DNA of 63,096 nt, from positions 1 to 63,096 of the forward strand of contig JAHJYC010000001.1 in NCBI GenBank assembly GCA_018826905.1. The letters run 5' to 3'. Position numbers and translations under genes: made by a program. This document shows, piece by piece, positions 30,299 to 62,951 of the stretch; positions within the stretch are counted from its first letter, which is position 1, and each line of letters starts with the position of its first letter. The notes beneath the pieces were generated by a model. It ran no database searches, was not told where the DNA came from, and saw nothing but the letters and a program-made list of their open reading frames with translations. The stretch comes from Patescibacteria group bacterium. Lineage in GTDB: Bacteria; Patescibacteriota; Minisyncoccia; Phycocordibacterales; Phycocordibacteraceae.

Positions 30299-31978
30299 AT
30301 GGAGCAGACATTGCGAGACGCAGTACAGAACGCACTCAATGAACTCGGAGTACCTGAGACTGAGTTTGTTATTGAGTGGCCAGCAGATCTCGCACACGGC
30401 GATTTCGCCACAAACGCAGCACTTGCGTGCGCGAAGGTCCTTGGGCGTTCTCCGCGAGAGATTGCCGAGGAGCTTGTAGAGAAGCTGCAGACAACGCTTG
30501 GGGATTCTGTAAAACACATTGAAGCAGCGGGACCGGGATTCGTTAACATAACGCTTGCGCACAGAACCATTACAAAACAGGTGGAGGGTGCAACAGTAAA
30601 AGACTGGGGGACACACACATACAACACGGGGAAGAGTGTGATGATTGAGTATTCCAATCCGAATCCTTTTAAGGAGATTCACATTGGGCACCTTATGAGT
30701 AATGTCGTGGGGGAGGCACTTTCACGCGTGCTTGAGGCATCCGGTGCTCGCGTGGTGCGCGACACGTTTGGAGGAGATGTAGGGCCGCATGTTGCAAAAG
30801 CACTCTGGGCTCTAAAGAAGAATAACGTTACGGATATTGGAAACGCTGGCGAGATTGGCAAGGCGTATATTCAAGGATCAAATGCCTACGAGGCAAGCAA
30901 AGAAGCAAAGGAAGAGATAGATGCGCTCAATACCCGCATTTACGACATTGTCGCTACGCAACTAGCGCCTGAGACATTGAGCGAAGAAGACAGAGAGATT
31001 CTCAATCTGTGGAGGAAAGGGAGAGAAGTCTCTATGGAAGAGTTTGCACGTATCTTCAGTATCTTAGGAACGCGTTTTGATTACATTTTCTATGATAGCG
31101 ATACTACGGAGGGAGGAATCTCAGTAGTGCGAGACGGAGTGACAAGCGGAGTGTTTGAACAAAGTGAAGGTGCAATCATCTATCGTGGGGAAAAGAAGGG
31201 ATTGCATACGCTTGTCTTCATCACGTCTCGGGGCACTCCAACATACGAGACCAAAGACATTGGCCTCGCGTTCCTTAAAGAAGAGCGGTGCTCAACTGAT
31301 GAGGTAATTATTATTACTGCTATTGAGCAGGTGGGGCACTTTGAAGTAGTGCTCGCTGCCCTAGAAGAGATTGCTCCACAACTTGCGAAAAAGATGACGC
31401 ATGTGCCGCACGGACTTCTTCGCCTTACGACCGGGAAGATGTCTTCGCGCAAAGGGAATATCATCACTGCCTCGGAGTTACTTGCAGACATGGTTCGTTC
31501 TGCAACAGAAAAGAATGCAGACCCGCTTGTAGCTGAGCAGGTGGCAGTGGCTGCAGTGAAGTACATGATCCTACGCCAGGCACCAGGGGGCGACATTGTA
31601 TTTGATCCTGAGAAATCTCTTTCGCTTGAAGGAGATTCAGGTCCGTATCTCCAGTACGCACTCGTTCGTGCTAAGTCCGTCATTGCTCAGAGTTCTGTAT
31701 CAGCAGATACGAGCGATGCTCCGGAAGAGCCGTATACACTTGAGCGACTCATAATTAGATTCCCTGAAATAATACGTAAGGCAGAGCGCTTACGTGCTCC
31801 TCACCTCATAACACAGTACGTCACCCAGCTTGCGGGGGAGTGGAACTCATTTTATGCAAAAGAACGCATTAGAGACGGTGCGCATGAAGCCTATAAGATC
31901 GCTGTAGCAACAGCGTTTGTCCGCACCATGGAGCAAGGACTTCATTTCTTAGGCATTCCTGTTCCAGAGAAGATGTAG
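30299..31978 (+). CDS. argS: Arginine--tRNA ligase
   Basis: SNPNPFKEIHIGH (HIGH motif); C-terminal DALR anticodon-binding domain ending ...GIPVPEKM. Confidence 0.95.
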   Translation: MEQTLRDAVQNALNELGVPETEFVIEWPADLAHGDFATNAALACAKVLGRSPREIAEELVEKLQTTLGDSVKHIEAAGPGFVNITLAHRTITKQVEGATVKDWGTHTYNTGKSVMIEYSNPNPFKEIHIGHLMSNVVGEALSRVLEASGARVVRDTFGGDVGPHVAKALWALKKNNVTDIGNAGEIGKAYIQGSNAYEASKEAKEEIDALNTRIYDIVATQLAPETLSEEDREILNLWRKGREVSMEEFARIFSILGTRFDYIFYDSDTTEGGISVVRDGVTSGVFEQSEGAIIYRGEKKGLHTLVFITSRGTPTYETKDIGLAFLKEERCSTDEVIIITAIEQVGHFEVVLAALEEIAPQLAKKMTHVPHGLLRLTTGKMSSRKGNIITASELLADMVRSATEKNADPLVAEQVAVAAVKYMILRQAPGGDIVFDPEKSLSLEGDSGPYLQYALVRAKSVIAQSSVSADTSDAPEEPYTLERLIIRFPEIIRKAERLRAPHLITQYVTQLAGEWNSFYAKERIRDGAHEAYKIAVATAFVRTMEQGLHFLGIPVPEKM

Positions 31979-32062
31979 ATAACTACACTTGCACCGAGGC
32001 GTACTTGACGGTAGGGTAGCAAAGTGGCTCTATTTTGGAGTCACTGGATTGGAGGAAATATA

Positions 32063-32335
32063 GTGCGTAAGAACACTTCGCCGCGAGCCAATCGCGGACC
32101 CGACTACCGGAAGACCCGCAAGAAGACGGACATCGTCCAGCAGGTCTGCAACAAGCTCGGCCTGCGCGCCATCGCGCTGTTCCGCAAGGCGTTCCGCTGG
32201 AAGCACGGACACCTGGATCAGCATCAGGTCGGCGTTGACCTGAAGAAGTTTCAGCAGAGCAACGGCCGGCGCCTGGCTGGCTATGTTCTCCGCTTCATCA
32301 AGTCGCTGGAACAGTCCAAGGCCATTCCGGCCTGA
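32063..32335 (+). CDS. GC-rich foreign-looking ORF encoding a small, very basic protein
   Basis: GTG start 6 nt after GGAGGA. By my count, 75 of 90 codons end in G/C. Rich in Arg/Lys. No recognisable motif. Confidence 0.55.
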   Translation: MRKNTSPRANRGPDYRKTRKKTDIVQQVCNKLGLRAIALFRKAFRWKHGHLDQHQVGVDLKKFQQSNGRRLAGYVLRFIKSLEQSKAIPA

Positions 32336-32361
32336 CTACTAGACCACAAGACGATCTTTCC

Positions 32362-32391
32362 ACGGCCATGCTTTCCGCATTGGCCGTTTTC
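32362..32391 (+). terminator. Intrinsic terminator after the GC-rich ORF
   Basis: ACGGCCA-tgctttccgcat-TGGCCGT followed by TTTT. Confidence 0.75.
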
Positions 32392-32425
32392 ATTTTTATG
32401 CGCGAAACGCTAGGATACAGAGACT

Positions 32426-35400
32426 ATGGCCGATACCCAAAAAACAGAGGCAGTGAAGAGGGAAGAGGAGATACTCGCTTTTTGGGAGCGCGAGAAGATA
32501 TTTGAGAAGTCGCTCAAGAAGCCAAGTTCAAAGGGAACCTTCGTTTTTTATGAGGGACCACCAACAGCAAACGGACGCCCTGGCGTGCACCATATGGAGT
32601 CTCGCTCCTTTAAGGACGCAATTCCAAGATATAAAACAATGCGTGGATATTCAGTTCCGCGTCGCGCTGGATGGGACACACACGGACTGCCGGTTGAGCT
32701 TGAGGTTGAAAAGCAACTAGGGTTCTCCGGCAAGAAAGACATTGAGGGATATGGAATCGCGGCCTTTAACAAGAAGTGCCGTGAGAGTGTTCTTGCATAC
32801 ATAGAAGAGTGGGACCGCTTTACGAAACGTATAGGGTATTGGGTTGATCAGGAGAAGGCGTACTTTACCTTTAATGCCCCTTTCATGGAGTCCGTATGGC
32901 ACATCATGAAAAAAGTATCTGATGATGGGCGTCTATTTAAAGACTACAAAGTAGTGCCATGGTGTGCGCGCTGTGGGACGGCACTCTCTTCACATGAGCT
33001 TGCTCAGGGGTATGCAGATGTGAAAGATCTCTCTATAACAGCAAAGTTTGAGCTCGCTGATGAACCTGGAACGTATCTACTGGCGTGGACAACCACACCA
33101 TGGACCCTCCCTGGAAACGTTGGACTTGCAGTTGGAGAGAAAATCTCCTATGGACAGTACGAGAAGGAAGGGGAGAGAGTCATTGTCGCTACAGAACTTG
33201 CAGGCAAGCTCGGGGAAGGATGGACTCTCTCAAAGGAATTCTCTGGAGCTGAACTGATTGGGAAAGAATACAAACCGCTCTATCCGTACGCGAAAGCACT
33301 TGCTCCTGAAAGTGAAGAGGAGAAGTTTACAAAAGCATTTCATGTATATCCTGCTGATTTTGTAACAACAGAAGACGGAACTGGAATCGTGCATACGGCT
33401 GTTATGTATGGACAGGAGGACTTTGAACTTGGGCAGACAGTAGGACTGCCGAAGGTGCACCTCGTTGCGCCAGACGGGAAGTTCATAGGTGGCACTGGAT
33501 TCCTAGAAGGGCGATTCGTGAAAGACCAAGAAGTTGCCATTGATATTCTTAAAGATCTTCAGGAGAGAGGACTCTTTTTCTCAAAAGAAAACTACACTCA
33601 CAGCTATCCATTCTGCTGGCGCTGTAAGACTCCTCTTATCTATTACGCACGAGACTCGTGGTATATCCGCATGCAAGACTTGCGAGATTCGTTGCTTGCT
33701 GCAAATAACACAGTGCACTGGGAGCCGAATCATATACAGCAAGGAAGAATGGGGGAGTGGCTCAAGAACGTAAAGGATTGGGCAATTTCTCGTGAGAGAT
33801 ACTGGGGCACTCCTCTTCCTGTGTGGGTGAGCGAAGACAAGACTGAACAGCTAGTTATTGGTTCTGTGGAGGAACTCCGCAAACACATACTGACAAACAA
33901 GAACCAATACTTCGTCATGCGGCACGGAGAAGCCGAGAACAATGCGAAAGATATTCTGGACTCAACAAATGAGAAGCGGTGGCCGCTCCTTGAAGAAGGA
34001 AAGAGACAAGTACACGAAGGGGTAAACGCACTTCGTGCGGAAGGAATAACACATATATACGCATCTCCTTTTGAACGGACAAAGCAGACAGCGGAAATTG
34101 CCGCAGAAGAACTTGGAATACCGAAGGACCAAATTGTGTACGACGAAAGACTTGGCGAGTTTGAGTTCGGCAAGTTCCATAGCGGAAGCCATCAAGCGTT
34201 TATGGAGTGGCGAGAGGATAAGCAGTACACCGATGCAGTTCCCGGCGGTGCTTCATATCAGGATGCGAAGAATAGATTCGGTGCATTCTTGTATGACATA
34301 GACACAAAGCATAGAGACGCCTCCGTACTTTTGGTAACTCATGGCATTGGTGTTGAAACTCTGCGTTCAATCGCAACAGGGTCTGGACCTGAAGAATCTA
34401 GAGAACTTGCGTACGAAAAGGTTCCGGAAAAGGGAGTTGCCGAGAAGCTGGATTTCGTTCCGCTCCCACACAACGACCAGTATGAGTTAGATCTGCATCG
34501 CCCGTACATTGATTCAGTGGTGCTGGTAAACGAAAAAGGAACTGAACTGCGTCGTGTGCCTGAAGTTATGGATGTGTGGTTTGACTCTGGGTCTGTACCG
34601 TTTGCGCAAGATCACTATCCTTTTGAAAACAAAGAGCACATTGATAGATCGGGATACCCAGCTGATTACATCTCAGAGGCAATTGATCAAACACGTGGAT
34701 GGTTCTACACGTTACTTGCAGTTGGTGCGCTTATGGAGCGGGGCGCTCCGTATAAGAATGTTATCTGCCTTGGGCACTTGCTAGACGAGAAGGGCCAGAA
34801 GATGTCTAAGTCTAAAGGGAATGTTGTTAATCCGTGGGAGGCTATAGAGCAGTACGGAGTAGATACGCTTCGCTTCTGGATGTATAGCGTGAATCAGCCT
34901 GGAGACTCAAAGAACTTTGACGATAAAACCGTGAAGGAAGCAGCGCGTGTTATTTCTTGGCTTGATAACAGTGCAAAGTTTTATGCACTCTTTAAGGATG
35001 GAGCAAGGAAAGGGGAGAAGACAGCAATTGATGTGTGGATGGACGCACGAGTGAATACTGCAGTGCAGGAAGTAACTGAAGCGATGGATGAGTACCGTCT
35101 CTATGAGGCCTCTAGAGCCGTAGCGCACTTGGTTGAAGATCTTTCACAATGGTATGTGCGCCGCATTAGAGATCGTGCTCGTGAAGGAGATACCGCAGCA
35201 CTCGTAACTCTTAAGAGTGCACTTAGGAACGTGGCACTTCTTATGGCACCTCTTTCTCCCTTTATTGCAGAAGAAGTATTCCAGTTAGTGCGCGAGGATA
35301 CGGATGCAGAAAGCGTACATCTTAGTGAATGGCCACGAGCTGAGAGAGGGCTTCTTTGGAAACTTGGAGGAGGAGAAAAAAAAGAAGAAGCATGCATTGC

Positions 35401-35845
35401 TGACATGAAGCGAGTGCGTACACTTGCGTCTGAGGCGCTGATGCTTCGCCAGAAGACAAACAGTAAGGTGCGCCAGCCACTCGCAAAGCTCTCAATCCCG
35501 GGAACTCTTTCTGAAGGACTCGCTCAGATCCTCAAAGACGAAGTGAACGTGAAAGAAATAGAGATGAATGCTGAAGAGCTTTCTCTAGACACAGTTCTTA
35601 CACCTGAGCTTGTGCGAGAAGGGGACGTGCGCGCTTTTATGCGTGCCGTTGCAGAAGCTCGCAAAGAAGCGGGCTACGAGCCAAAGGATATTGTAAATAT
35701 CACAGTAGGGAGTGAAGCAAAAGACATTCTTAGTGGAGAGACCTTTGTGGGCGTAGGCACTCTTACATATGGGGAAGGAGGTACGCTCAGTGCGGAGCTT
35801 TCTACTGGAAAGGTGCTGTTCTCTATTTCTTCTAATGCGTCATAA
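32426..35845 (+). CDS. ileS: Isoleucine--tRNA ligase with an inserted histidine-phosphatase (PGAM-like) domain
   Basis: HIGH-type PGVHH, KMSKS present, editing domain [11 protein letters not shown]. An insert at aa ~488-687 carries RHGE...LLVTHG. Confidence 0.95.
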
Positions 35846-36380
35846 GTACGTTACAGAGGCGATTGTGCTCCAAAGAACACCGCTCGCAGAAGCAGCGACA
35901 CTAGTAACGCTACTCACAGAGGAGTTTGGGCTCGTGCGTGCACGGGCTGAGGGGTTGCGGAAACCCGGAGCAAAACTGTCTAGTGCACTACAAACACTTT
36001 CTCACTCAGAAGTAACCCTCATGCGGGGCAAGCATGGGTGGCGTCTTTCAGGAGCACTCCTCACAAAGAACTGGTTTCAGACTCTTTCTCCGGAGTCTCG
36101 TGAGCGAGCAGGGCGAGTAGGAACACTTATACTCCGCTTAGTGCAAGGGGAGGGACAAGGATCTCTGTATGACTTGTATGATGAATTTTTGGGAAAGCTT
36201 CAGGACTCAACTGAAGAAGAAGGAGACACTGCAGAATGTATTTATGCACTCCGTATCTTGTCTGAACTTGGACTGGACACTGGCGACATACCCGAAACGG
36301 ATCAAAAGGCATTGTCTGCTCAAGCAAGGAGAGATGTGGTGATGCGTATCAATCGCGGTATTACTGCCTCAGGTCTTTAG
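35835..36380 (+). CDS. recO: DNA repair protein RecO (short form)
   Basis: [20 protein letters not shown]...[18 protein letters not shown]-fold N-terminus. Overlaps the ileS end by 11 nt. Confidence 0.75.
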
Positions 36381-36404
36381 AGAGGTACGGTATACTGATG
36401 CGTA

Positions 36405-38288
36405 ATGCCAGAGGAATTGCCGGAATCAAACGACGACACAAGTACGCTTGAGCGACTGCGAAGGAAGCTCTATGCCCAAGAGGCGCCTGAAACGTTTACG
36501 GTGCCTGAGCTTGCGCACGAAGAGGTAGCGCAACCGGGAGTTTCCTGGTCGCCTCCACCAGTTGAGGATAAGAAACCACGCATATCGTGGGCAGTTATAT
36601 TCCTTATTGTTGCTGCGGTATTTTTCGTACTTGCGGTTGCGGGAGCTGCGTATTTCCTTATCTTTGGTGCACGCGCAGTCTCTACCGACCGTGTGATCAT
36701 TTCAATTGATGCGCCGACTGCTATAGCAAGCGGTGATACAGTCGCACTCCTTTTGTCAGTACAGAACAATAATCCGGTTCCCATCCATTCAACTCTTATT
36801 GCGGTTGATTTCCCGGAAACAACACGTTCAGCTGAATCAATGGACACTCCGCTTAATCATTTTGAGGATACACTTGGAGACATAGAGCCTGGAAAAGCAG
36901 GACAGCAAACAATACGGGCAGTGCTTTTTGGGGCAGAGAATGAACGAGTGAGTATTCCGCTACGATTTGAGTATCGTGTAGAAGGATCAAATGCAGTGTT
37001 TGTTAAGGAGACCACCTATGATGTGGCCATTACATCCTCTCCACTTAGTGTGCGTGCAGAGGCAGTAACAGAAGCAACAGCAGGTCAGCCACTGACGTTT
37101 GCAGTAACGGTCCGTTCAAATGCTACTACCCGTGTAGAACACGTTGCCGTGCTTGCTCAGTATCCTTTTGGATTTACTGCACGTAAGGGGGAGGGTCCAC
37201 TCTTTCCCATTGGAAGCTTAGATCCCGGAGAAGAGAAGACCGTTGCTATAACAGGGACGCTCGCTGGAGAAAATAGTGAACAGAAGGTCTTTAGATTTAC
37301 TGCGGGTACGAGAGCCAATGCGGATGCATCTCTTTTAGCTGTCTCCTACACCACCACTGAAGCAGCCGTAACGCTTGGTAAGCCATTCCTCAATACATCG
37401 CTTTCGGTGAACCATGATGGAGGTGCGTCACCAGTAGTTAGTGCTGGCTCGCAAGCTCAGGGAATTATCTCGTGGGCAAATACGCTCTCAACTCCAATTC
37501 TAGATGGAGAGATTCTAATAAAGCTTTCTGGGGCAGCGCTTGATCCGAGTTCTGTGAGCGCATATGGAGGATTCTATCGTTCCTCGGACACCACACTTAT
37601 CTTTAGCAAAGAAACAAATTCAGAGCTTGCGCGCCTCGCGCCAGGAGCAACAGGAAACGGTTCGTTTACGTTTGCAACAAAGAACCCTGCTGCACTTACA
37701 GGTGTGAAAAATCCAACCGTTACTGCAACGGTGTCTGTATCAGGGCGTCGGGTAGGGGAGTCTAACGTACCCGAGAGCGTCTCCTCTTCATTAGTGCGCA
37801 CGATTAAGGTTGGGACAGATCTTTCGCTAAAGGCACGCGCACTCTATAGCATTGGTGCTTTTAAGAACACCGGTCCATGGCCCCCTGTTGCCGACACAGA
37901 GACGACCTACACTATAGAGCTCGTGCTTGCCAACACGCTTAACTCAGTTGCCAACGCCTCAGTCTCAGCAACACTGCCTTCCTATGTAACGTATACCGGT
38001 GCAGTGAGCCCGGATGATGGGTCTCTGACATATAATCCAACGTCTAGACGCGTAACATGGAACGCTGGTGAGGTGCCTGCAGGAGCAGGGAGCCGCACCA
38101 TGAGTTTCCAGGTGAAGCTGTTGCCAAGTGTTTCTCAGCGCGGTACAAGTCCTATACTTATGTCCGCTCAGCAGATAACCGGTACTGACCGATTTACACA
38201 AAAGTCTATTTCATTTACAAACCCAGAAGTAACAACCAACACACTAGCAGACCCGCAGTTCCAGGCTAATTCAGGAACAGTTCGCTAA
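36405..38288 (+). CDS. Large membrane-anchored surface protein with repeated Ig-like (CARDB/DUF11-like) beta domains
   Basis: One TM helix at about aa 60-85, then about 540 aa of Thr/Ser/Val-rich beta-strand repeats. Confidence 0.7.
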   Translation: MPEELPESNDDTSTLERLRRKLYAQEAPETFTVPELAHEEVAQPGVSWSPPPVEDKKPRISWAVIFLIVAAVFFVLAVAGAAYFLIFGARAVSTDRVIISIDAPTAIASGDTVALLLSVQNNNPVPIHSTLIAVDFPETTRSAESMDTPLNHFEDTLGDIEPGKAGQQTIRAVLFGAENERVSIPLRFEYRVEGSNAVFVKETTYDVAITSSPLSVRAEAVTEATAGQPLTFAVTVRSNATTRVEHVAVLAQYPFGFTARKGEGPLFPIGSLDPGEEKTVAITGTLAGENSEQKVFRFTAGTRANADASLLAVSYTTTEAAVTLGKPFLNTSLSVNHDGGASPVVSAGSQAQGIISWANTLSTPILDGEILIKLSGAALDPSSVSAYGGFYRSSDTTLIFSKETNSELARLAPGATGNGSFTFATKNPAALTGVKNPTVTATVSVSGRRVGESNVPESVSSSLVRTIKVGTDLSLKARALYSIGAFKNTGPWPPVADTETTYTIELVLANTLNSVANASVSATLPSYVTYTGAVSPDDGSLTYNPTSRRVTWNAGEVPAGAGSRTMSFQVKLLPSVSQRGTSPILMSAQQITGTDRFTQKSISFTNPEVTTNTLADPQFQANSGTVR

Positions 38289-38298
38289 GTACACACGT

Positions 38299-39675
38299 AT
38301 GGTATCCCTAGAAACAATTGTCTCTTTCGCAAAGCGCCGAGGATTTATATTTCCTGGGTCTGAGATCTATGGCGGATTCGCGGGGACCTACGACTTCGGA
38401 CCTCATGGCCTCGCGCTCAAGAAGAATATAGAACAACTCTGGTGGAGGAGGTTTGTTGAGCTGCGAGACGATATGTACGGTATTGATTCAGCAATTCTTA
38501 TGAGTCCTCGTGTGTGGGAAGCGTCTGGGCATACCACCACTTTTAACGACCCACTCGTTGTTGATCAAAAGACTCAGAAGCGATATCGCGCAGACCACCT
38601 TCTTGAAGAGGCTGGCATTGATCCAACTGGCATGAGTACGGATCAAATGAGTGCTGCGCTCAAAGAGAAGGGTATACAGAGTCCTGAAGGGAACCCCCTG
38701 TCTGAAGTACAACAATTCAATATGATGTTTAAGACCTCAGTGGGATCTGTTGAAGGAGGAGAGATGCCCGCGTACTTACGTCCAGAAACGGCACAGGGAA
38801 TGTTCGTTAATTTCAAGAACATCATTGATTCGTATCATCCAAAACTTCCATTCGGTATCGCACAAATAGGGCGCGCATTTAGGAACGAGATTGCTCCTCG
38901 CGAGTTTATTTTCCGTGTTCGTGAGCTTGAGATTATGGAACTAGAGTACTTCCTTGAAGAGAAAACATGGGAAGAGCAGTTTGCCTACTGGCAGAAGGAA
39001 ATGCACGCCTGGTTTAAGGAAATCGGTTTTTCTGACGAAGACGTGAAAGAAGTTGAAGTGTCTGAAGAGGAGCGCGCGCACTATTCAAAGCGCACCTTAG
39101 ATTTCTATTTTAAGTACCCCGGAGGCTTTAAGGAGATCGGAGGACTGGCGTATCGTACAGACTTTGACCTAAAGAATCATGAGGAAGCATCAGGAGCTGA
39201 GTTGCGGTATCTAGATCAAGAGAAAAACGAAAAGATTTCTCCTCACGTACTTGAGCCAACGTTTGGTCTTGGAAGACACGTGCTGGCAGTTCTTGTTAAG
39301 GCATACGATACAGACTCGCTTGGCGGGGAAGAGCGCGTGGTATTGCGGTTGCCTGCAAAGCTCGCTCCAGTAAAAGCACTCGTCTCTCCGCTTCTTAAAA
39401 ATAAGCCAGAACTCGTTGCGAAGGCGCAGGAGGTACGAAGACGTCTCCAGGAAGTACACCCTGCTATTGCGTGGGATGATAACGGGAATATTGGGAAACG
39501 CTACAGACGACAAGATGAAATTGGTACCCCCTTCTGCATCACTGTTGATTTTGACACCCTGGGAGAGTCTCCTGAGCTTACAGACACGGTTACTCTTAGA
39601 CACCGGGATACTGGGGAGCAAGAGCGCCTTTTTATTGAAGAGGTGGCAGAGCGACTCACACAGGCCCTTAAGTAG
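38299..39675 (+). CDS. glyQS: Glycine--tRNA ligase (dimeric class II type)
   Basis: RRGFIFPGSEIYGG, FRNEISPR-like (FRNEIAPREF), and a C-terminal anticodon-binding domain. Confidence 0.95.
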   Translation: MVSLETIVSFAKRRGFIFPGSEIYGGFAGTYDFGPHGLALKKNIEQLWWRRFVELRDDMYGIDSAILMSPRVWEASGHTTTFNDPLVVDQKTQKRYRADHLLEEAGIDPTGMSTDQMSAALKEKGIQSPEGNPLSEVQQFNMMFKTSVGSVEGGEMPAYLRPETAQGMFVNFKNIIDSYHPKLPFGIAQIGRAFRNEIAPREFIFRVRELEIMELEYFLEEKTWEEQFAYWQKEMHAWFKEIGFSDEDVKEVEVSEEERAHYSKRTLDFYFKYPGGFKEIGGLAYRTDFDLKNHEEASGAELRYLDQEKNEKISPHVLEPTFGLGRHVLAVLVKAYDTDSLGGEERVVLRLPAKLAPVKALVSPLLKNKPELVAKAQEVRRRLQEVHPAIAWDDNGNIGKRYRRQDEIGTPFCITVDFDTLGESPELTDTVTLRHRDTGEQERLFIEEVAERLTQALK

Positions 39676-39706
39676 GAGATTTGGGGCGCTGTGCTAGTAT
39701 TTTCCT

Positions 39707-40756
39707 ATGCACAAAAACGTCTCCATAACTATCACCCCGGGCACCATTATCACTGCAATTCTTATTGGAGCGGTGGCTTTCGCGTTGTGGACGCTTCGTG
39801 ATCTCGCGCTTTTGGTGCTTACTGCAATTGTTATCGCCTCAGCCATTGAGCCAGGAGTTTCATTTTTCCGTAGGAAACATATCCCCCGCGTGCTTGCTGT
39901 GACGGGCATGTATGTAGCAGTATTTGGTTCTTTGTTTGCTATTGTCTACTTTTTCCTTCCTCCAGTACTTGATGACGCTCAAGGATTCCTTTCAACAGCT
40001 CCTCAATATTTGGACACGCTTAATATTCCCGCACCTTTTGCTGTACTAACCGATACTGCTCGTACCGCAGCAGCGCCAGACCAATCACAGTCCATCTTTG
40101 ATACGCTATTTGCGTTCCAGTCTGCGTTCGCAGATACCACAGGTGGGGCAGTGCGCGTATTGTCCACCTTCTTTGGCGGCATCTTCGCGCTCATTCTCGT
40201 TATTGTGCTCTCTTTCTACTTTGCAATCCAGGAGACTGGAATTGATGATTTCGTGAGACTCATAACTCCTTCCAAACATGAGAATTATGCAGTAGGACTT
40301 TGGTTGCGTGCGAAAAAGAAAATAGGGCAGTGGATGCAGGGGCAACTGCTGCTGTCGCTGATTGTGGGAGTCATTGTGTATTTAGGGCTTCTTATTCTTG
40401 GGGTTCCGTACGCGCTTTTGCTCGCACTTCTCGCTGCAATTCTTGATCTGATTCCAATCTTCGGCTCTTTTATTGCTGGAATCTTGGGCGTGATTGTTGC
40501 ATTCGCTTCAGGAGGGGTGACGCTTGCTTTGATTGTTGCAGGGCTCTTCTTTATCGTGAATCAGTTTGAGGCGCACCTTATCTACCCGCTTGTGGTGAAT
40601 AAAGTGGTCGGTATTCCTCCTCTACTTGTTATTCTTGCCCTCATTGTCGGAGGAAGTCTTGCAGGATTCCTGGGAGTTCTCCTCTCTATCCCTCTGGCAG
40701 CCGCACTTCGTGAATTCCTTAGTGACGTAGAGCGCCGGAAACATCTCCCTGTATAG
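39707..40756 (+). CDS. AI-2E family transporter (PerM/UPF0118)
   Basis: Eight TM helices; LDLIPIFGSFIAG motif. Confidence 0.85.
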   Translation: MHKNVSITITPGTIITAILIGAVAFALWTLRDLALLVLTAIVIASAIEPGVSFFRRKHIPRVLAVTGMYVAVFGSLFAIVYFFLPPVLDDAQGFLSTAPQYLDTLNIPAPFAVLTDTARTAAAPDQSQSIFDTLFAFQSAFADTTGGAVRVLSTFFGGIFALILVIVLSFYFAIQETGIDDFVRLITPSKHENYAVGLWLRAKKKIGQWMQGQLLLSLIVGVIVYLGLLILGVPYALLLALLAAILDLIPIFGSFIAGILGVIVAFASGGVTLALIVAGLFFIVNQFEAHLIYPLVVNKVVGIPPLLVILALIVGGSLAGFLGVLLSIPLAAALREFLSDVERRKHLPV

Positions 40757-40768
40757 GGGTAATTAGCA

Positions 40769-42199
40769 ATGGCTCGGTACGTTACTACTACACTTCCATA
40801 CGTAAACGCCGACCCGCACATCGGGTTCGCGCTTGAGATCATTGAGGCCGATGTAATTGCACGTGCATGGCGTCTTAGGGGAGAGGAGGTGTTCTTTTCA
40901 ACAGGCGCAGATGAGCACGGTCAAAAGATATGGGAAGCCGCTGAACGAGCTGGGAAAAACGCTCAAGAGTATGTTGATTATTACGCACATGAAGTAGAGA
41001 AGCTGAAGGAAGCGCTCTCGCTTTCAACAGACCACTTTATTCGTACCACTGACACAGCACACAAAGAGGCAGCACAAGAAATGTGGAGGCGGTGCATGGA
41101 GGCAGGAGATATCTATAAGAAGTCTTATACCGGTAGGTATTGTGTAGGGTGTGAGGCATATAAAACGGAGCGCGAGCTTGATGCAGAGGAACACTGTGTG
41201 CTCCATCCTAGTCTCACACTTGAAGAGAGAACTGAAGAAAACTATTTCTTTGCATTCTCTAAGTACACCGAACAACTGCTTGCGGTGTTGAATACTCCTG
41301 CGTCAATTGTTCCCGAATGGAGACGAGAAGAAGCAGTACGATTTGTTACAGAGGGGCTTGAGGATTTCAGTATTTCTAGGAAGAAGGAGAAGCTTTCGTG
41401 GGGAGTTCCAGTTCCAGGAGACGATACACAAGTTATGTATGTTTGGTTTGATGCGCTTACCAGCTACCTTTCAACACTTGGGTGGCCACGTGATGGTAAC
41501 GGGCTCTATGAAAAGTTTTGGGTAAACGGCACAACTCTTCAAATGGCAGGGAAGGACCAAGTGCGGTTCCAATCTCTTATGTGGCAGGCAATGCTCTGCT
41601 CTGCGGGAATTAAGAATACTGACCAGGTTTTCTATCATGGCTTCATCAATTCCGGCGGCCAACGTATGTCAAAGTCTTTAGGGAACGTTATTAGTCCTTA
41701 CGAGCTTGTTGAGAAATATGGCACCGAGGCTACGCGGTACGTGCTTTTGCGTCACGTACACCCCACAGAGGACTCTGATGTTACATGGGAGCGTCTTGAT
41801 GAATGGTACACCGCCAATCTCGTGAATGGGCTTGGGAATCTCCTTGCACGCATTATGAAGCTTGCAGAGACACATCTGGAGAAGGGAATTGACCAGCCTG
41901 AGGAAGACGACTTTGATCCAAAGTACTGGAATTCTTTGGACACATTTGAGTTCAGTCAGGGAATGGATCTAGTGTGGAGCAAGATTCAGGTGCTTGATGA
42001 GCGCATTACGCGGGAAGAACCATTTAAGCTGGTAAAAAGTGATCCAGAAGCGGGGAGGAAGAATATAACGGAGCTTACTCACGAACTATATGCTGTTGGC
42101 AGATTGCTCGCTCCGTTCATGCCAGATACTAGTGAACGCATAAAAGAGGCCGTCCTCTCAAACAAGAAGCCGGAGAATCTATTCCCACGTCTTTCTTAA
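40769..42199 (+). CDS. metG: Methionine--tRNA ligase (short form without C-terminal tRNA-binding domain)
   Basis: TLPYVNADPHIGF (HIGH), KMSKSLGN and a Zn knuckle CVGCEAY...C. Confidence 0.95.
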   Translation: MARYVTTTLPYVNADPHIGFALEIIEADVIARAWRLRGEEVFFSTGADEHGQKIWEAAERAGKNAQEYVDYYAHEVEKLKEALSLSTDHFIRTTDTAHKEAAQEMWRRCMEAGDIYKKSYTGRYCVGCEAYKTERELDAEEHCVLHPSLTLEERTEENYFFAFSKYTEQLLAVLNTPASIVPEWRREEAVRFVTEGLEDFSISRKKEKLSWGVPVPGDDTQVMYVWFDALTSYLSTLGWPRDGNGLYEKFWVNGTTLQMAGKDQVRFQSLMWQAMLCSAGIKNTDQVFYHGFINSGGQRMSKSLGNVISPYELVEKYGTEATRYVLLRHVHPTEDSDVTWERLDEWYTANLVNGLGNLLARIMKLAETHLEKGIDQPEEDDFDPKYWNSLDTFEFSQGMDLVWSKIQVLDERITREEPFKLVKSDPEAGRKNITELTHELYAVGRLLAPFMPDTSERIKEAVLSNKKPENLFPRLS

Positions 42200-59243: not shown

Positions 59244-59921
59244 CTTGCACAGAACACGGGCTCGTTGACAGACGAATATGCAAATAGGTAATCAACGCCG
59301 CATGGCGTGACTTTCGTCATGTCATGCGGATTGAATATTGCAGAATCACAAAAATTAGAACAGTGGTGTTCAGGTTTCCGCACAGGAGACAATAAGGGTG
59401 CACGGTGGATGCCTAGGCTTGCGACAGCGATGAAGGACGCGACTAATCAGCGAAATGCTTCGGGGAGACGATTTGTAGTCTTTGATCCGGAGGTGTCCGA
59501 ATGGGGAAACCCGGCCAGCAATGGTCACCCAGCTTTTAAGCTGAGGAGCGAACCCAGGGAAGTGAAACATCTCAGTACCTGGAGGAATAGAAAACAACAA
59601 CGAGTTGCGTTCCGTCTATTCGATGCTTCGAGTAGATGGAACGCGACTCTCGTGATTCCCTAAGTAGCGGCGAGCGAAACGGGAATAGCCCAAACCGGGT
59701 ACTTCGGTATCCGGGGTTGTAGGGCGGAAGCGCCGTATTTATACGGCATAAGTTACAAAAGTTCTACATAGCAGAAGAAGCTGGAAAGCTTCGCCCCAGA
59801 GGGTAATGGCCCCGTATGCGAAATGTAAAACTCTTATGCGCTTCCGTTCCTGAGTAGTTCGAGACACGAATAGCTCGGATGAATCTGCCAGAACTAACTG
59901 GTAAGGCTAAATATGTCGCAG

Positions 59922-59967
<46 letters not shown>

Positions 59968-60539
59968 GAGAGGGGAGTGAAATAGAACTGAAACCGTGTA
60001 CTTACAAAGGGTTAGGGTGGGCTCCGGTCCATCCTAGCGTGCCTATTGAAGAATGAGCCTGCGAGTTTATGTATGTCGCTTCGGCTAAATCCGTTACGGG
60101 ATGGAGCCATAGGGAAACCGAGTGTTAATAGCGCGCCCGTGTCATACATAAGACCCGAAGCCAAGTGAGCTTGCCATGAGCAGGATGAAGTCTGTCGAAA
60201 GACAGATGGAGGTCCGAACCCGTAGATCGTACAACGTCTTGGGATGACTTGTGGTAAGGAGTGAAAAGCTAATCGAACTTGGTAATAGCTGGTTCTCTCC
60301 GAAACATCTTTTGGGATGGCGTCGTGTGTTCCCCTTGGGGGTAGAGCACTGGAAGGGATGAACAGGGAGAAATCTCGTCATTCCTATCAAACTCCGAATA
60401 CCAAGGATTATGAGCGCGGCAGTTAGACGGTGGGGGCGAAGCTCCACACGTCGAAGGGGGAAGAGCCCTTGATCGCCAGTTAAGGTCCCAAAATTTACGC
60501 TAAGTACAACTTAAGGAAGTGAGGATTCTTCGACAATGA

Positions 60540-60571
<32 letters not shown>

Positions 60572-61404
60572 GAAAGCGTAACAGCTCACTCATCGAGAGT
60601 CCTTGCGCCGAAGATAATCGGGGTTAAGCGTAATACCGAAACTGCGGGTGTGCATGTCTTCCGAGACGTGCACGCGGTAGGAGAGCGTTCCGTTCTGCTG
60701 TGAAGCTAAAGGGGTGACCCATAGTGGAGCGTACGGAAGTGAGAATGCAGGCACAAGTAACCACAACGCGGGTGAGAACCCCGCGCGTCGAAAGAACAAG
60801 GTTTCCTCAGCTATGGTGATCAACTGAGGGTTAGTCGGGCCTTAGGGGATGGCGAAAGCCGCACCTGATGGACACAGGGTTAATATTCCCTGACCGATCA
60901 TATGTGCGATGGAGTGACGGATTGCTGTATCTATGGCCCATTATTGGATTTGGGTTAGTGCCGTGAGGAGGTCTGGTAGGCAAATCCGCCAGACATTACT
61001 CCGAGCGGAAAAACAATGTCCTTCCACGGAGGGACAGAGCATAGAGAGCGCGGTTCCAAGAAAAACTTCTAAGCTTCAGCATATGACGACCGTACCGCAA
61101 ACCGACACAGGTGTTCAGGTCGAGTAGACTAAGACGAACGAGTTAGAGGTCCTCAAGGAACTCGGCAAAAAAGCGGCCGTAAGTTAGCGATAAGGCCTGC
61201 TCTGGGCAACCAGAGCCGCAGCGAAAGATTTTCTGCCAACTGTTTATCAAAAACACAGCTCCCTGCGAACTCGTAAGAGGATGTATAGGGGGTGACGCCT
61301 GACCAATGCCGGAAGGTCAAGCGCGGGAGGTACATTGATTTATTGATGTGCTGGACCGTATAAGCCCCGGTGAATGTCGGCGATAACTATAATCGTCCTA
61401 AGGT

Positions 61405-61601
61405 TCTGCGTATGAGCAATCGTACGCAGAACGGATTGGGGCGGTTATAGGAGACCGTAAACAGTGTTGAGAGACTTGCGTCATTAAAAGCTACCTCTTC
61501 AAACCGAAAGGTTTGTTGGATCCACGACTCAAATGAGAGGCCATACGTCGTGCCCCCAAGCAATTGGGGTGAAGATATGGTCCTGCTTGAAGGAATAGTA
61601 G
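61405..61601 (+). mobile_element. ORF-less group I intron in 23S rRNA (about E. coli position 1931)
   Basis: The exon junction restores CCTAAGGT|AGCGTAATTCCTTGTC. The 5' exon ends in U and the intron ends in G. R-like element ACGACTCAAATG; S-like element GAAGATATGGTCC; P8-like hairpin CCCCAA-gcaa-TTGGGG. Confidence 0.8.
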
Positions 61602-62262
61602 AGCGTAATTCCTTGTCTGGTAAGTTCAGACGTGCACGAATGGCGTAATGAGTGGAAAACTGTCTCGAGGACTTGCTCGGTGAAAATGCAATACCGGTGA
61701 AGATGCCGGTTACCTGTAGTTAGACGAAAAGACCCCAGGAGCTTTACTACAGCTTGGTATTGGGGCTGCGTGATATATGCGTAGCATAGGTGGGAGACTT
61801 TGAAGCATACCTTTCGGGGTGTGTGGAGTCGCCAGTGAAATACCACTCTTATATTGTGCAGTCTCTAACCCGCGTAAGAACTACGTGGGAACAGTGCCTG
61901 GCGGGTAGTTTTGGTGGGGCGCTATCCTCCTAAAAAGTAACGGAGGAGTCTATTAAGGTTGGCTAGGCGCGAATGGAAACCGTGCCGATAGTGTAATGGC
62001 ACAAGCCAGCTTAACTGTAAGGGGTACATCCCGCACAGATGCGAAAGCAGAGCATAGTGAACCGATGGTACGCCTTAGATGCGGCCAGAGATTAACGGAT
62101 AAAAGTTACCCTGGGGATAACAGGCTAGTTCCGCCCAAGCGTCCATAGCGACGGCGGAGTTCGGCACCTCGATGTCGGCTCACCTTAGCGCGGGGCTGGA
62201 GAAGGTCCCAAGCGTATGGCTGTTCGCCATTTAAAAAGGTACGCGAGCTGGGTTCAAACCGT

Positions 62263-62567
62263 GAGGGGATTGAATAGCAATATTTGATTCTCTCACCGTT
62301 TGAATCCCTTCGAGATTTCTGTTATCAGAACCGATAAAGTGCGATGTGAATGTCTTTTCGTCTTGAAACTAAGATAGAACCAACCATGACACGGCGGTTG
62401 TATGCAGCAATGTATACAAGCAAGCTGACTCATATCGGTGGAACCCTACTCGTAAGAGGGGCAACACCGAGGGAATCCTGAAAGGGAGCCCGTAGAGACT
62501 GAACGTCAGACATCCTTTGGGATGAATTTACAGTCCGATCCTTGGAGTAATCCAAGTAAACGAAATG
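62263..62567 (+). mobile_element. ORF-less group I intron in 23S rRNA (about E. coli position 2593)
   Basis: The exon junction restores GGGTTCAAACCGT|CGTGAGACAGG. The intron ends in G. R-like element GTAGAGACTGAACG; S-like element TTTACAGTCCGATCC; GNRA hairpin CTTGGA-gtaa-TCCAAG. Confidence 0.8.
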
Positions 62568-62951
62568 CGTGAGACAGGTTGGTCTCCTATCTACTACAGG
62601 CGTTGATTCTTGAGGAGACTTGCCCCTAGTACGAGAGGACCGGGGTGAACTGACCTCTGGTCTACGAGCTGTCACGCCAGTGGCATCGCTCGGTAGCTAT
62701 GTCGGGAACTGATAACTGCTGAAAGCATATAAGCGGGAAGCAAACTCCAAGATTAGGAATCGTTATGAGGCTCCTAGAAGATTACTAGGTTGATAGGCTT
62801 TAGATGGAAGCGCAGTGATGCGTTGAGTCGAGAAGTACTAATATGCCCAGACTTCTGTGCGGAATTCTGTATGTCACGTCTAATGATGTGATCTGTAACA
62901 AAAACCTATTTGCATATTCGTCCGTCCATGAGGACGGAAACGTGCGCATGA

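Follow-up and report, generated by a model that had tools for sequence, protein, structure and literature searches.

The stretch of DNA analysed here, 63,096 nucleotides of contig JAHJYC010000001.1 from a Patescibacteria group bacterium (assembly GCA_018826905.1; hereafter the window), carries at 32426..35845 on the + strand (stop codon included) the gene ileS, which encodes a type-2 isoleucyl-tRNA synthetase (IleRS) of 1139 amino acids with a histidine phosphatase domain nested in it. The gene was delineated from the list of open reading frames (ORFs) and from the NCBIfam equivalog model TIGR00392 (ileS), which matched with 835.3 bits against a cut-off of 621.4, the match being split into two stretches around the insert. 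When the whole ORF was searched with Pfam, tRNA-synt_1 was found at residues 16–495, the histidine phosphatase family His_Phos_1 (PF00300) at residues 496–662 (E = 4.2e-29, 102 bits against a gathering cut-off of 21.7), and Anticodon_1 at residues 869–1019. The nested, PhoE-like phosphatase domain and its return linker together occupy residues 488–687 (33887..34486, +; hereafter site A), as defined by Pfam, by a break in the alignment to solved IleRS, by AlphaFold2 (AF2) modelling and by Foldseek. A preliminary description of this DNA had claimed that a branch-1 histidine phosphatase domain of about 200 residues is inserted in frame in IleRS, and the claim stands: PF00300 matched the 200-residue segment alone with an E-value of 1.4e-30 (106.9 bits against the same cut-off of 21.7), and the best fold match was PhoE, as described below.

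The IleRS part of the protein looks intact, as far as can be judged from its sequence. Its best solved relatives are IleRS2 of P. megaterium (8C8U, 8C8V and 8C8W) and IleRS of Thermus thermophilus (1ILE), and the full-length AF2 model (predicted local distance difference test score, pLDDT, of 89.8 and predicted template modelling score, pTM, of 0.82) was superposed by Foldseek on the type-2 IleRS 8c8v with a template modelling (TM) score of 0.82 normalised to the target. The C-terminal organisation is also that of type 2, with P. megaterium IleRS2 as the best matches of the full-length protein and with DUF5915 found by Pfam at the C-terminus; in NCBIfam, furthermore, the window IleRS scored under the cut-offs of the MupA and MupB exception models. 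The class I signature HIGH takes the form GVHH at residues 53–56 (32582..32593, +), in which H56 is invariant and G53 and H55 are nearly invariant among 115 aligned homologues; this [A/G]XHH variant has been described as giving mupirocin hyper-resistance in IleRS2 (bioRxiv 10.64898/2026.02.03.703510). By motif position, the editing-domain motif WTTTPWTLP of connective polypeptide 1 (CP1) was located at residues 221–229 (+) and KMSKS at residues 792–796 (34799-34813, +), while DVWFDSG lies at residues 716–722 in the second half of the Rossmann fold (within 34487..35842, +). The HIGH-type motif, KMSKS, the editing-domain motifs and WFDSG are thus all present and are invariant or nearly so in the 115 homologues, and the isolated editing-domain structures 1wk8, 1wny and 1udz align to residues 195–395 of the window protein. 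With these motifs intact and with no second ileS found in the 63-kb window, the window protein would be expected to aminoacylate tRNA-Ile.

The position of the insert was then read from the alignments to solved IleRS. Residues 9–488 of the window protein correspond to residues 10–478 of 8c8w and residues 687–1053 to residues 485–855; in the case of 1ile, residues 10–486 correspond to 11–478 and residues 688–977 to 488–794. At this point, therefore, the window IleRS has ~200 residues as opposed to ~7–10 residues in the solved IleRS, in agreement with the preliminary description, which had the protein collinear with type-2 IleRS up to about residue 487 and then a segment of about 200 residues in place of a short linker. 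The IleRS sequence resumes at 34487..35842 (+) with the rest of connective polypeptide 3 (CP3), the second Rossmann half, and the anticodon-binding and C-terminal domains, as indicated by the alignment to 8c8w and by Anticodon_1 and DUF5915 in Pfam. Residue 486 of the window protein aligns to about residue 497 of Candida IleRS and about residue 490 of yeast IleRS, and CP3 was reported to span residues 473–534 in the former (PMC7191050) and 459–526 in the latter (PMC7955072). CP3 is a peripheral module that joins CP2 to the second Rossmann half; its topology varies among solved IleRS, and it has a zinc motif in Thermus (PMC7191050). The arrangement of cysteines in relatives locates the insertion further: the insert-less IleRS at locus L089 has CEKC, a short tip and again CEKC, and the nested IleRS at loci L097, L111 and L117 have CxxC, ~190 residues and CxxC, which indicates that the insertion took place at the tip of the hairpin. 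By alignment, then, the phosphatase was inserted at the tip of CP3, a peripheral hairpin, and not in the active-site core.

The preliminary description had also placed the phosphatase within the catalytic core and close to the site of aminoacylation. The nesting in IleRS is borne out, but the core is not, as the domain sits on the peripheral CP3 tip (PMC7191050); it is the base of CP3 that lines a pocket at the tRNA site, according to work on yeast IleRS (PMC7955072). This base corresponds to the CP2–CP3 linker at residues 449–461 of the window protein (33770..33808, +), assigned by motif position and by homology to the yeast segment. In yeast, its homologue is the segment 453-ARDWNVSRNRYWG-465, which forms part of the lining of the pocket for reveromycin A, a compound reported to sit where tRNA-Ile binds (PMC7955072). 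As a separate observation, the window lineage is without the four cysteines of the CP3 zinc knuckle and has SEDK and NEKG at the corresponding places (33824-33841, residues 467–472, and 34526-34540, residues 701–705).

In terms of fold, the insert is a short histidine phosphatase. The AF2 model of the insert only, built from its own alignment, had a pLDDT of 93.5 and a pTM of 0.90, and its top Foldseek match was PhoE (1h2e; TM scores of 0.72/0.75, root-mean-square deviation of 2.6 Å). There were 288 matches in the PDB at E<=0.001, and all of the 50 listed belong to the histidine phosphatase superfamily; those following PhoE were PspA, glucosyl-3-phosphoglycerate phosphatase, CobC, TIGAR and a riboflavin-pathway phosphatase, all of which are short members of the superfamily. 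PhoE was also the best match when the sequence profile was compared with solved structures (E = 1e-23). Models that define a substrate, nonetheless, gave no assignment for the insert alone. Among those for cofactor-dependent phosphoglycerate mutase (dPGM), the scores were 66.5 bits against a cut-off of 225 for dPGM_arch, 63 against 261 for GpmB, 35.2 against 316 for PRK01295, 16.9 against 320 for PRK01112, and 16.3 against 366 for PRK14120; CobC (61.3 against 162.9), PspA (51 against 350) and SixA (33.5 against 74.5) likewise stayed below their cut-offs. Since every substrate-specific equivalog is far under its cut-off, no substrate assignment can be transferred to the nested domain. The term “PGAM-like” used in the preliminary description is hence appropriate at the level of the superfamily but not in the sense of phosphoglycerate mutase proper, with PhoE as the closest solved relative.

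The roles of the phosphate pocket, the nucleophile and the proton donor are well established in the mechanism of the histidine phosphatase superfamily, and all of the corresponding residues are found in the insert. The RHG motif, with R499, the nucleophile H500 and G501, is encoded at 33920..33928 (+); the second arginine of the phosphate pocket, R551, at 34076..34078 (+) within SPFERT (residues 547–552); E578 at 34157..34159 (+) within RLGEFEFG; and the second catalytic histidine, H639, at 34340..34342 (+) within VTHG (residues 637–640). The RHG, SPFERT and VTHG motifs are where the preliminary description had put them. In an alignment of 258 copies of the domain, R499, H500, R551 and H639 are invariant (258/258), and E578, which is predicted from the superfamily mechanism to be the proton donor, is Glu in 246 copies and Asp in 9. 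S547 is likewise invariant in this alignment, and N506 and R617 are nearly so. The mean pairwise identity is, however, only 43% in the phosphatase domain as opposed to 73–79% in the catalytic parts of IleRS; a domain diverging this fast that nonetheless keeps its Arg, His, Arg and His residues invariant is under selection for catalysis. One polypeptide thus combines a whole IleRS with a whole histidine phosphatase, the active site of which is under purifying selection. Most of the phosphatase domains are, furthermore, acidic: 79% have a negative net charge, the mean being −4.9 and that of the window copy −12.

The domain returns to IleRS through PLPHNDQYE (residues 679–687; 34460..34486, +), a conserved linker confined to the embedded form, as can be seen from its conservation and from the end-points of the free homologues. 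Within it, P679, L680, P681, H682, N683, Y686 and E687 are at least 90% conserved, and F677 just ahead of it is invariant; indeed, PLPHNDQYE was the most conserved peptide pattern and was picked for the genome scan described below. The free-standing homologues stop at ...GELRKLN, a strand matching residues 672–675 of the window protein, and thus end before PLPHNxxYE. In the full-length model, the pLDDT is 93–98 over the insert and its linkers. An intein or another mobile element inserted in frame was also considered and was ruled out, because the insert takes the histidine phosphatase fold over its whole length and has unsuitable residues at its junctions: the “HN” of PLPHNDQYE precedes Asp/Glu and not Cys/Ser/Thr, and no conserved Cys/Ser was found at the N-terminal junction.

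The nested architecture is shared by many relatives. In a collection of 5.8 billion proteins, PF00300 was found inside IleRS in 120/120 of the best homologues, which are 61–89% identical to the window protein; they come from NCBI, JGI, ENA and Logan assemblies, some on contigs of 0.5–0.7 Mb, and the named organisms among them are Patescibacteria, Paceibacterota or Parcubacteria. When genomes were scanned with one genome per species, the nested form was found in at least 135 species-representative genomes of Patescibacteria, so that the fusion supposed in the preliminary description does recur in bacteria of the candidate phyla radiation (CPR); the titles of the carriers include Nomura-, Adler-, Zambryski-, Taylor- and Wolfebacteria. 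Many titles read “uncultured Candidatus Saccharibacteria”, an unconfirmed label, which may mean either a distribution wider than Paceibacteria or the use of a generic name. All of the 80 loci fetched have the phosphatase domain within a large IleRS ORF. Also, a search with the insert only among 1.84 billion representatives at 50% identity gave 437 matches below 1e-10, and most of the best 150 of the 437 are IleRS, whole or in fragments, that carry the domain at site A. The reality of the assembly rests on these independent assemblies and on composition; the GC content is even over both junctions (0.47–0.49). An assembly chimera or a frameshift artefact that joined two genes, which the preliminary description had named as a way in which its claim could fail, would require the same in-frame architecture to have been produced in hundreds of independent assemblies from several sources, and would sit poorly with the even composition at the junctions and with the confident single-chain model with ordered linkers. 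A chimeric join is excluded by the identical architecture across many independent assemblies, and we regard the probability of any such artefact as negligible.

Outside the nested form, the phosphatase is encoded by a separate gene of ~190 codons, here called hp. The closest genuine free-standing relative (P0150, 189 residues) is encoded between argS and an insert-less ileS of 931 residues, with a gap of 1 nt (locus L081), and the genes downstream, namely those for RecO, a DUF11-like protein, a class II aminoacyl-tRNA synthetase and an AI-2E transporter, follow in the same order as in the window. The order argS-hp-ileS was also found at L125, the hp protein of which is named Candidatus Staskawiczbacteria in NCBI, and at L127, both of which keep the downstream synteny of the window as L081 does, and at L126, where one extra gene separates hp from ileS. 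At L084, an insert-less ileS is convergent with hp and directly abuts it; at L083 and L086, argS-hp is followed by the end of the contig, and the arrangement at L085 departs from argS-hp-ileS. In total, hp was counted between argS and an insert-less ileS in four of the eight contexts looked up. Five proteins (P0126, P0123, P0145, P0169 and P0143) were dropped as candidates for the free form because they lie on contigs of ~1 kb or are clustered with a member of 723 residues and are probably IleRS fragments.

A metagenome scan for free forms, seeded by an alignment of five free-standing proteins, returned 38 loci. At 18 of them, the free hp immediately preceded an insert-less ileS on the same strand; at two, it abutted a convergent ileS, and at another two, argS-hp was followed by the end of the contig. 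At seven, the domain was nested at the CP3 site, and the remainder were more distant phosphatases with no neighbouring aminoacyl-tRNA synthetase (5/38) and partial matches (4/38). The free form itself is a large family: all of the 120 clusters listed are 167–232 residues long and have PF00300 only, and the named ones are from Patescibacteria. Some details of these loci may be noted on the side. The extra gene between hp and ileS at L126 (5570-6160) encodes a CYTH domain, of the triphosphate-tunnel phosphohydrolase family, and the ileS of this locus encodes only 818 residues without the DUF5915 C-terminus. The CYTH gene and a HIT gene upstream at L125 were considered as clues to a nucleotide or phosphate chemistry and were discarded, as neither recurs in the 127 loci or in the window. 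The insert-less ileS at L084 (2682-5609, −) was called as two ORFs of 412 and 554 residues that jointly span the IleRS core, either by a frameshift, by a stop codon or by a sequencing error.

In some IleRS, furthermore, CP3 is uninterrupted and the phosphatase domain is found at other loops. Three such sites can be described in terms of the window protein: site B, at about residues 728–743 after WFDSG; site C, at about residues 843–867 at the start of the helical anticodon-binding domain; and site D, at about residues 416–442. P0174 (1419 residues) and P0231 (1379 residues) have two copies, at sites B and C, P0153 has copies at sites A and B, P0215 and P0230 have two tandem copies at site A, and P0129 has four copies, one of them at site D. 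Pfam confirmed two, two and four His_Phos_1 domains in the multi-copy variants, and the R-H-R-E-H set is kept in every complete copy, including those at sites B, C and D. Six assemblies contain the P0174 type, in one case on a contig of 1.06 Mb, and the P0215 type was found on nine contigs. Over all sequences fetched, 268 copies were counted at site A (and another five that were mis-binned by alignment offsets), nine at B, eight at C and one at D, the numbers for B and C being inflated by six near-identical members of the P0174 cluster. An end-to-end fusion to IleRS or ArgRS was found in none of the ~290 embedded copies. In distance trees, the site-B copies cluster, the copies of P0129 cluster together, and IleRS from split and nested forms are interleaved, which hints at more than one transition between the split and nested states. 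The pairing of the phosphatase with IleRS is therefore conserved over a large group of bacteria, as adjacent genes, as nested domains at four sites and as multiple copies. The split-gene arrangement and the variants with other insertion sites are the most informative of these observations. We also noticed an IleRS ORF of 1088 residues at L068 (4534-7797, +) with two matches to the phosphatase hidden Markov model (HMM) despite a length typical of a single copy; the alignment may have been split, or the domain may be partly duplicated.

The reading that we prefer, with a probability of roughly 0.6, is that the window protein is a bifunctional enzyme of IleRS and a PhoE-like phosphatase, that the latter came from an adjacent partner gene, that the two are physical partners, and that a small phosphomonoester is hydrolysed near the synthetase. 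A complete type-2 IleRS carries, at the tip of CP3, a complete phosphatase predicted to be catalytically competent. The nested phosphatase would be derived from the separate hp of ~190 residues, which is sited between argS and the insert-less ileS in related Patescibacteria; its coding sequence lies in frame within ileS in the lineage of the window, and in other surface loops or in two to four copies in other lineages. The phosphatase and IleRS would form a complex when they are split and a single polypeptide when they are nested, and the phosphatase would act on a small phosphomonoester close to the synthetase. By the logic of gene fusion (“Rosetta stone”), the adjacent, nested and multi-copy pairing argues for a functional partnership. 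That an end-to-end fusion was never seen, though it would be mutationally easy from a gap of 1 nt, suggests that the position on the IleRS body matters, and so does the return linker, which is conserved and, like the linkers as a whole, well ordered. As the substrate, we favour a small phosphomonoester over tRNA, because small molecules are what the closest relatives act on and because most of the domains are acidic; our best guess, and it is a guess only, would be a nucleotide-type compound tied to the adenylation reaction or to its control. It is the phosphatase activity, the physical and functional coupling, the direction from split to nested and the class of the substrate that we infer here.

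Several points weigh against this reading. None of the results points to a substrate, and the equivalog models for dPGM, GpmB, CobC, PspA and SixA are all far below their cut-offs. The copy in the window has unusual residues at two positions that are conserved in the family but lie outside the catalytic set (T522L and E609A): residue 522 (33989-33991) is Leu in the window and Thr in 242/258 copies, and residue 609 (34250-34252) is Ala in the window and Glu in 239/258. The order argS-hp-ileS could be an inherited synteny without any functional link, and adjacency alone could favour local rearrangements by which one gene comes to lie inside its neighbour. Also, the sample of loci was gathered with the phosphatase as the bait, and the neighbour-joining trees are star-like and without support values, so that the number and direction of the transitions from split to nested are uncertain.

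Alternatively, the nesting might be neutral: an unrelated housekeeping phosphomonoesterase, the gene of which happens to lie beside ileS, would have been moved repeatedly into tolerant loops and retained because both activities are needed. CP3 differs in topology among solved IleRS and is hence tolerant of change (PMC7191050), and the other insertion sites are variable loops as well. The neighbours are housekeeping genes in the conserved order smpB-infC-rpmI-rplT-argS-hp-ileS-recO, the insert diverges faster than the IleRS core, and a link of its substrate to IleRS is not evident, all of which would be consistent with neutrality. Although this is the main rival and is to be taken seriously, we consider it the less probable course, since it would have to account for an essential gene having taken up the domain in frame at four or more independent sites, for the expansion to two to four intact copies and for zero end-to-end fusions, which would arise far more easily from an intergenic gap of 1 nt, and since the strongly conserved return linker and the high pLDDT of the linkers suggest a fixed geometry. 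Somewhat more doubtful in our view is the idea of a new kind of synthetase-coupled catalytic module that acts on a ligand of IleRS, be it the acceptor end of tRNA-Ile, from which a phosphate or pyrophosphate block would be removed, a nucleotide or inhibitor that is phosphorylated and located at the synthetic site, or a phosphorylated form of IleRS. A phosphorylated nucleotide or metabolite, a tRNA end and a regulatory role had also been suggested in the preliminary description. If so, a step of repair or control would be added to aminoacylation that has no described counterpart in aminoacyl-tRNA synthetases, and a selective advantage of keeping the phosphatase near the ligand would explain both the recurrent nesting at several loops of the catalytic body and the conservation of the hp-ileS operon.

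Taken as repair or processing of the tRNA end, the phosphatase would make tRNA-Ile chargeable by clearing its acceptor end of a 2'/3'-phosphate (or of a pyrophosphate that a toxin had left there) or of a 5'-phosphate. A tRNA-binding scaffold would supply the specificity for such a substrate, several of the positions on the catalytic body are compatible with reaching the acceptor arm, and CP3 contributes its base to the wall of the pocket in which reveromycin A takes the place of the tRNA (PMC7955072). The acidic nature of the domains (79% negative; −12 in the window) is, however, unfavourable for binding RNA, no RNA-acting enzyme is among the closest solved set, and it would be left without explanation why the need is confined to IleRS; we therefore hold this to be unlikely. 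The phosphatase might instead dephosphorylate IleRS or a component of translation, for example in reversing inhibition by a kinase toxin, as is known for HipA-type kinases on other synthetases. The superfamily does include protein phosphatases, namely SixA, PGAM5 and Sts-1, and several surface positions would suit an intramolecular substrate; the SixA model gave a weak match (33.5 bits), but this was under the cut-off of 74.5 and covered the N-terminal third only. With a fold nearest to small-molecule phosphatases and with no kinase gene seen in the conserved neighbourhood of the window and of the loci looked up, a protein substrate appears quite improbable. Of still lower probability are a glycolytic, cofactor-dependent phosphoglycerate mutase and a non-catalytic, structural stand-in for the lost zinc knuckle of CP3. 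It is true that the top NCBIfam name is the archaeal dPGM model and that the lineage of the window has lost the CP3 cysteines kept by relatives; yet the dPGM models scored 16–66 bits against cut-offs of 225–366 and the domain is of the short, PhoE-sized form of ~170 residues, while the zinc knuckle and the insert are held together at L097, L111 and L117 and a purely structural role is opposed by the invariant catalytic residues.

Both parts of the protein are well-known families, and what appears to be new is their nested combination with the pattern of split, nested and multi-site forms. PhoE (YhfR) from Geobacillus (Bacillus) stearothermophilus (1EBB/1H2E), a phosphatase of broad specificity, resembles the nested domain in its size of ~170–200 residues and in the R-H-R-E-H set, but it is free-standing, is only 23–24% identical and has no counterpart of the PLPHNxxYE linker. 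P. megaterium IleRS2 and Thermus 1ILE are collinear with the window IleRS throughout (E = 1e-226) and share the type-2 C-terminus; the [A/G]XHH form of HIGH that was studied as a natural form in P. megaterium IleRS2 is also shared, whereas the zinc-binding motif of Thermus CP3 (PMC7191050) is not, there being no cysteines at the matching positions of the window IleRS. In design, the nearest parallel is the CP1 editing domain of IleRS, ValRS and LeuRS, which is also a hydrolytic domain nested in a connective polypeptide of a class Ia catalytic domain. CP1 is, however, universal in these three synthetases and hydrolyses mischarged tRNA, whereas the His_Phos domain occurs in one bacterial group, has an unrelated fold and is a predicted phosphomonoesterase; it lies in CP3 and not in CP1, and the two coexist in the window IleRS.

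Two further cases of fused enzyme domains are known from NCBIfam. NF040702 (ileS_w_GNAT) describes another IleRS with an extra enzyme domain, in this case GNAT, of which the window protein is not a member (318 bits against a cut-off of 1999). The bifunctional RNase H/acid phosphatase (NF005567, PRK07238), of the Mycobacterium tuberculosis Rv2228c type, has a branch-1 domain fused to a nucleic-acid enzyme and was the second-best NCBIfam match of the insert (65.7 bits, far under the cut-off of 326), but judging from the model coordinates it is an end-to-end fusion and not a nested one, and its partner enzyme is unrelated. Aminoacyl-tRNA synthetases are among the most studied enzymes, and their known extra domains serve editing, tRNA binding or, in eukaryotes, signalling; to our knowledge, a nested phosphomonoesterase is outside that catalogue. 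NCBIfam holds no named model for the His_Phos form of IleRS, and no description of a fusion between IleRS and a phosphatase was found in the literature searched, in line with the preliminary description, which could not place the architecture among known synthetases. A 2026 preprint annotated the domain architectures of 96,219 IleRS, and neither “phosphatase” nor “Patescibacteria” occurs in its main text. The database names of the nested proteins are only isoleucyl-tRNA synthetase or “class I tRNA ligase family protein”, a point that bears on annotation. As adjacent, nested and multi-copy forms exist side by side, the pairing is a natural Rosetta-stone case that points to a functional tie of a PhoE-type phosphatase to the charging of isoleucine, and this tie could reveal a new step of control or repair of translation in organisms with minimal genomes. 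It is also a clean natural example of the insertion of a domain from a neighbouring gene and informs the origin of nested multi-domain enzymes.

In the window itself, the conserved neighbour upstream of ileS is argS (30299..31978, +), which encodes an ArgRS of 559 residues with Arg_tRNA_synt_N, tRNA-synt_1d and DALR_1 in Pfam and which is syntenic with L081, L125 and L127. The spacer between argS and ileS, the slot of the separate hp in relatives, has on the ORF list a basic, GC-rich ORF of 103 residues (32024..32335, +), which may or may not be a real gene; its GC content is 0.56–0.58 as opposed to ~0.48 nearby, and it matched neither Pfam nor the phosphatase HMM. A leftover hp gene in this spacer was ruled out, as the phosphatase HMM matched only ileS across the 63-kb window, and a scan of the spacer for terminators and promoters gave nothing usable. 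Four genes for aminoacyl-tRNA synthetases lie within 12 kb on one strand (30299-42199); in addition to argS and ileS, these are a gene for a class II synthetase with the HGTP anticodon domain (38299-39675, +) and metG (40769-42199, +), and the genes for RecO, the DUF11-like protein and the AI-2E transporter are located between the synthetase genes.

At the far end of the window, a 23S rRNA match at 59380-62862 (+) is 3483 nt long as opposed to the 2925 positions of the model and thus has about 550 nt extra. Insertions in rRNA are common in CPR bacteria; none of the Rfam intron families was reported in the 23S rRNA region at the gathering threshold. Three short ORFs of 101–118 residues overlap the 23S rRNA.

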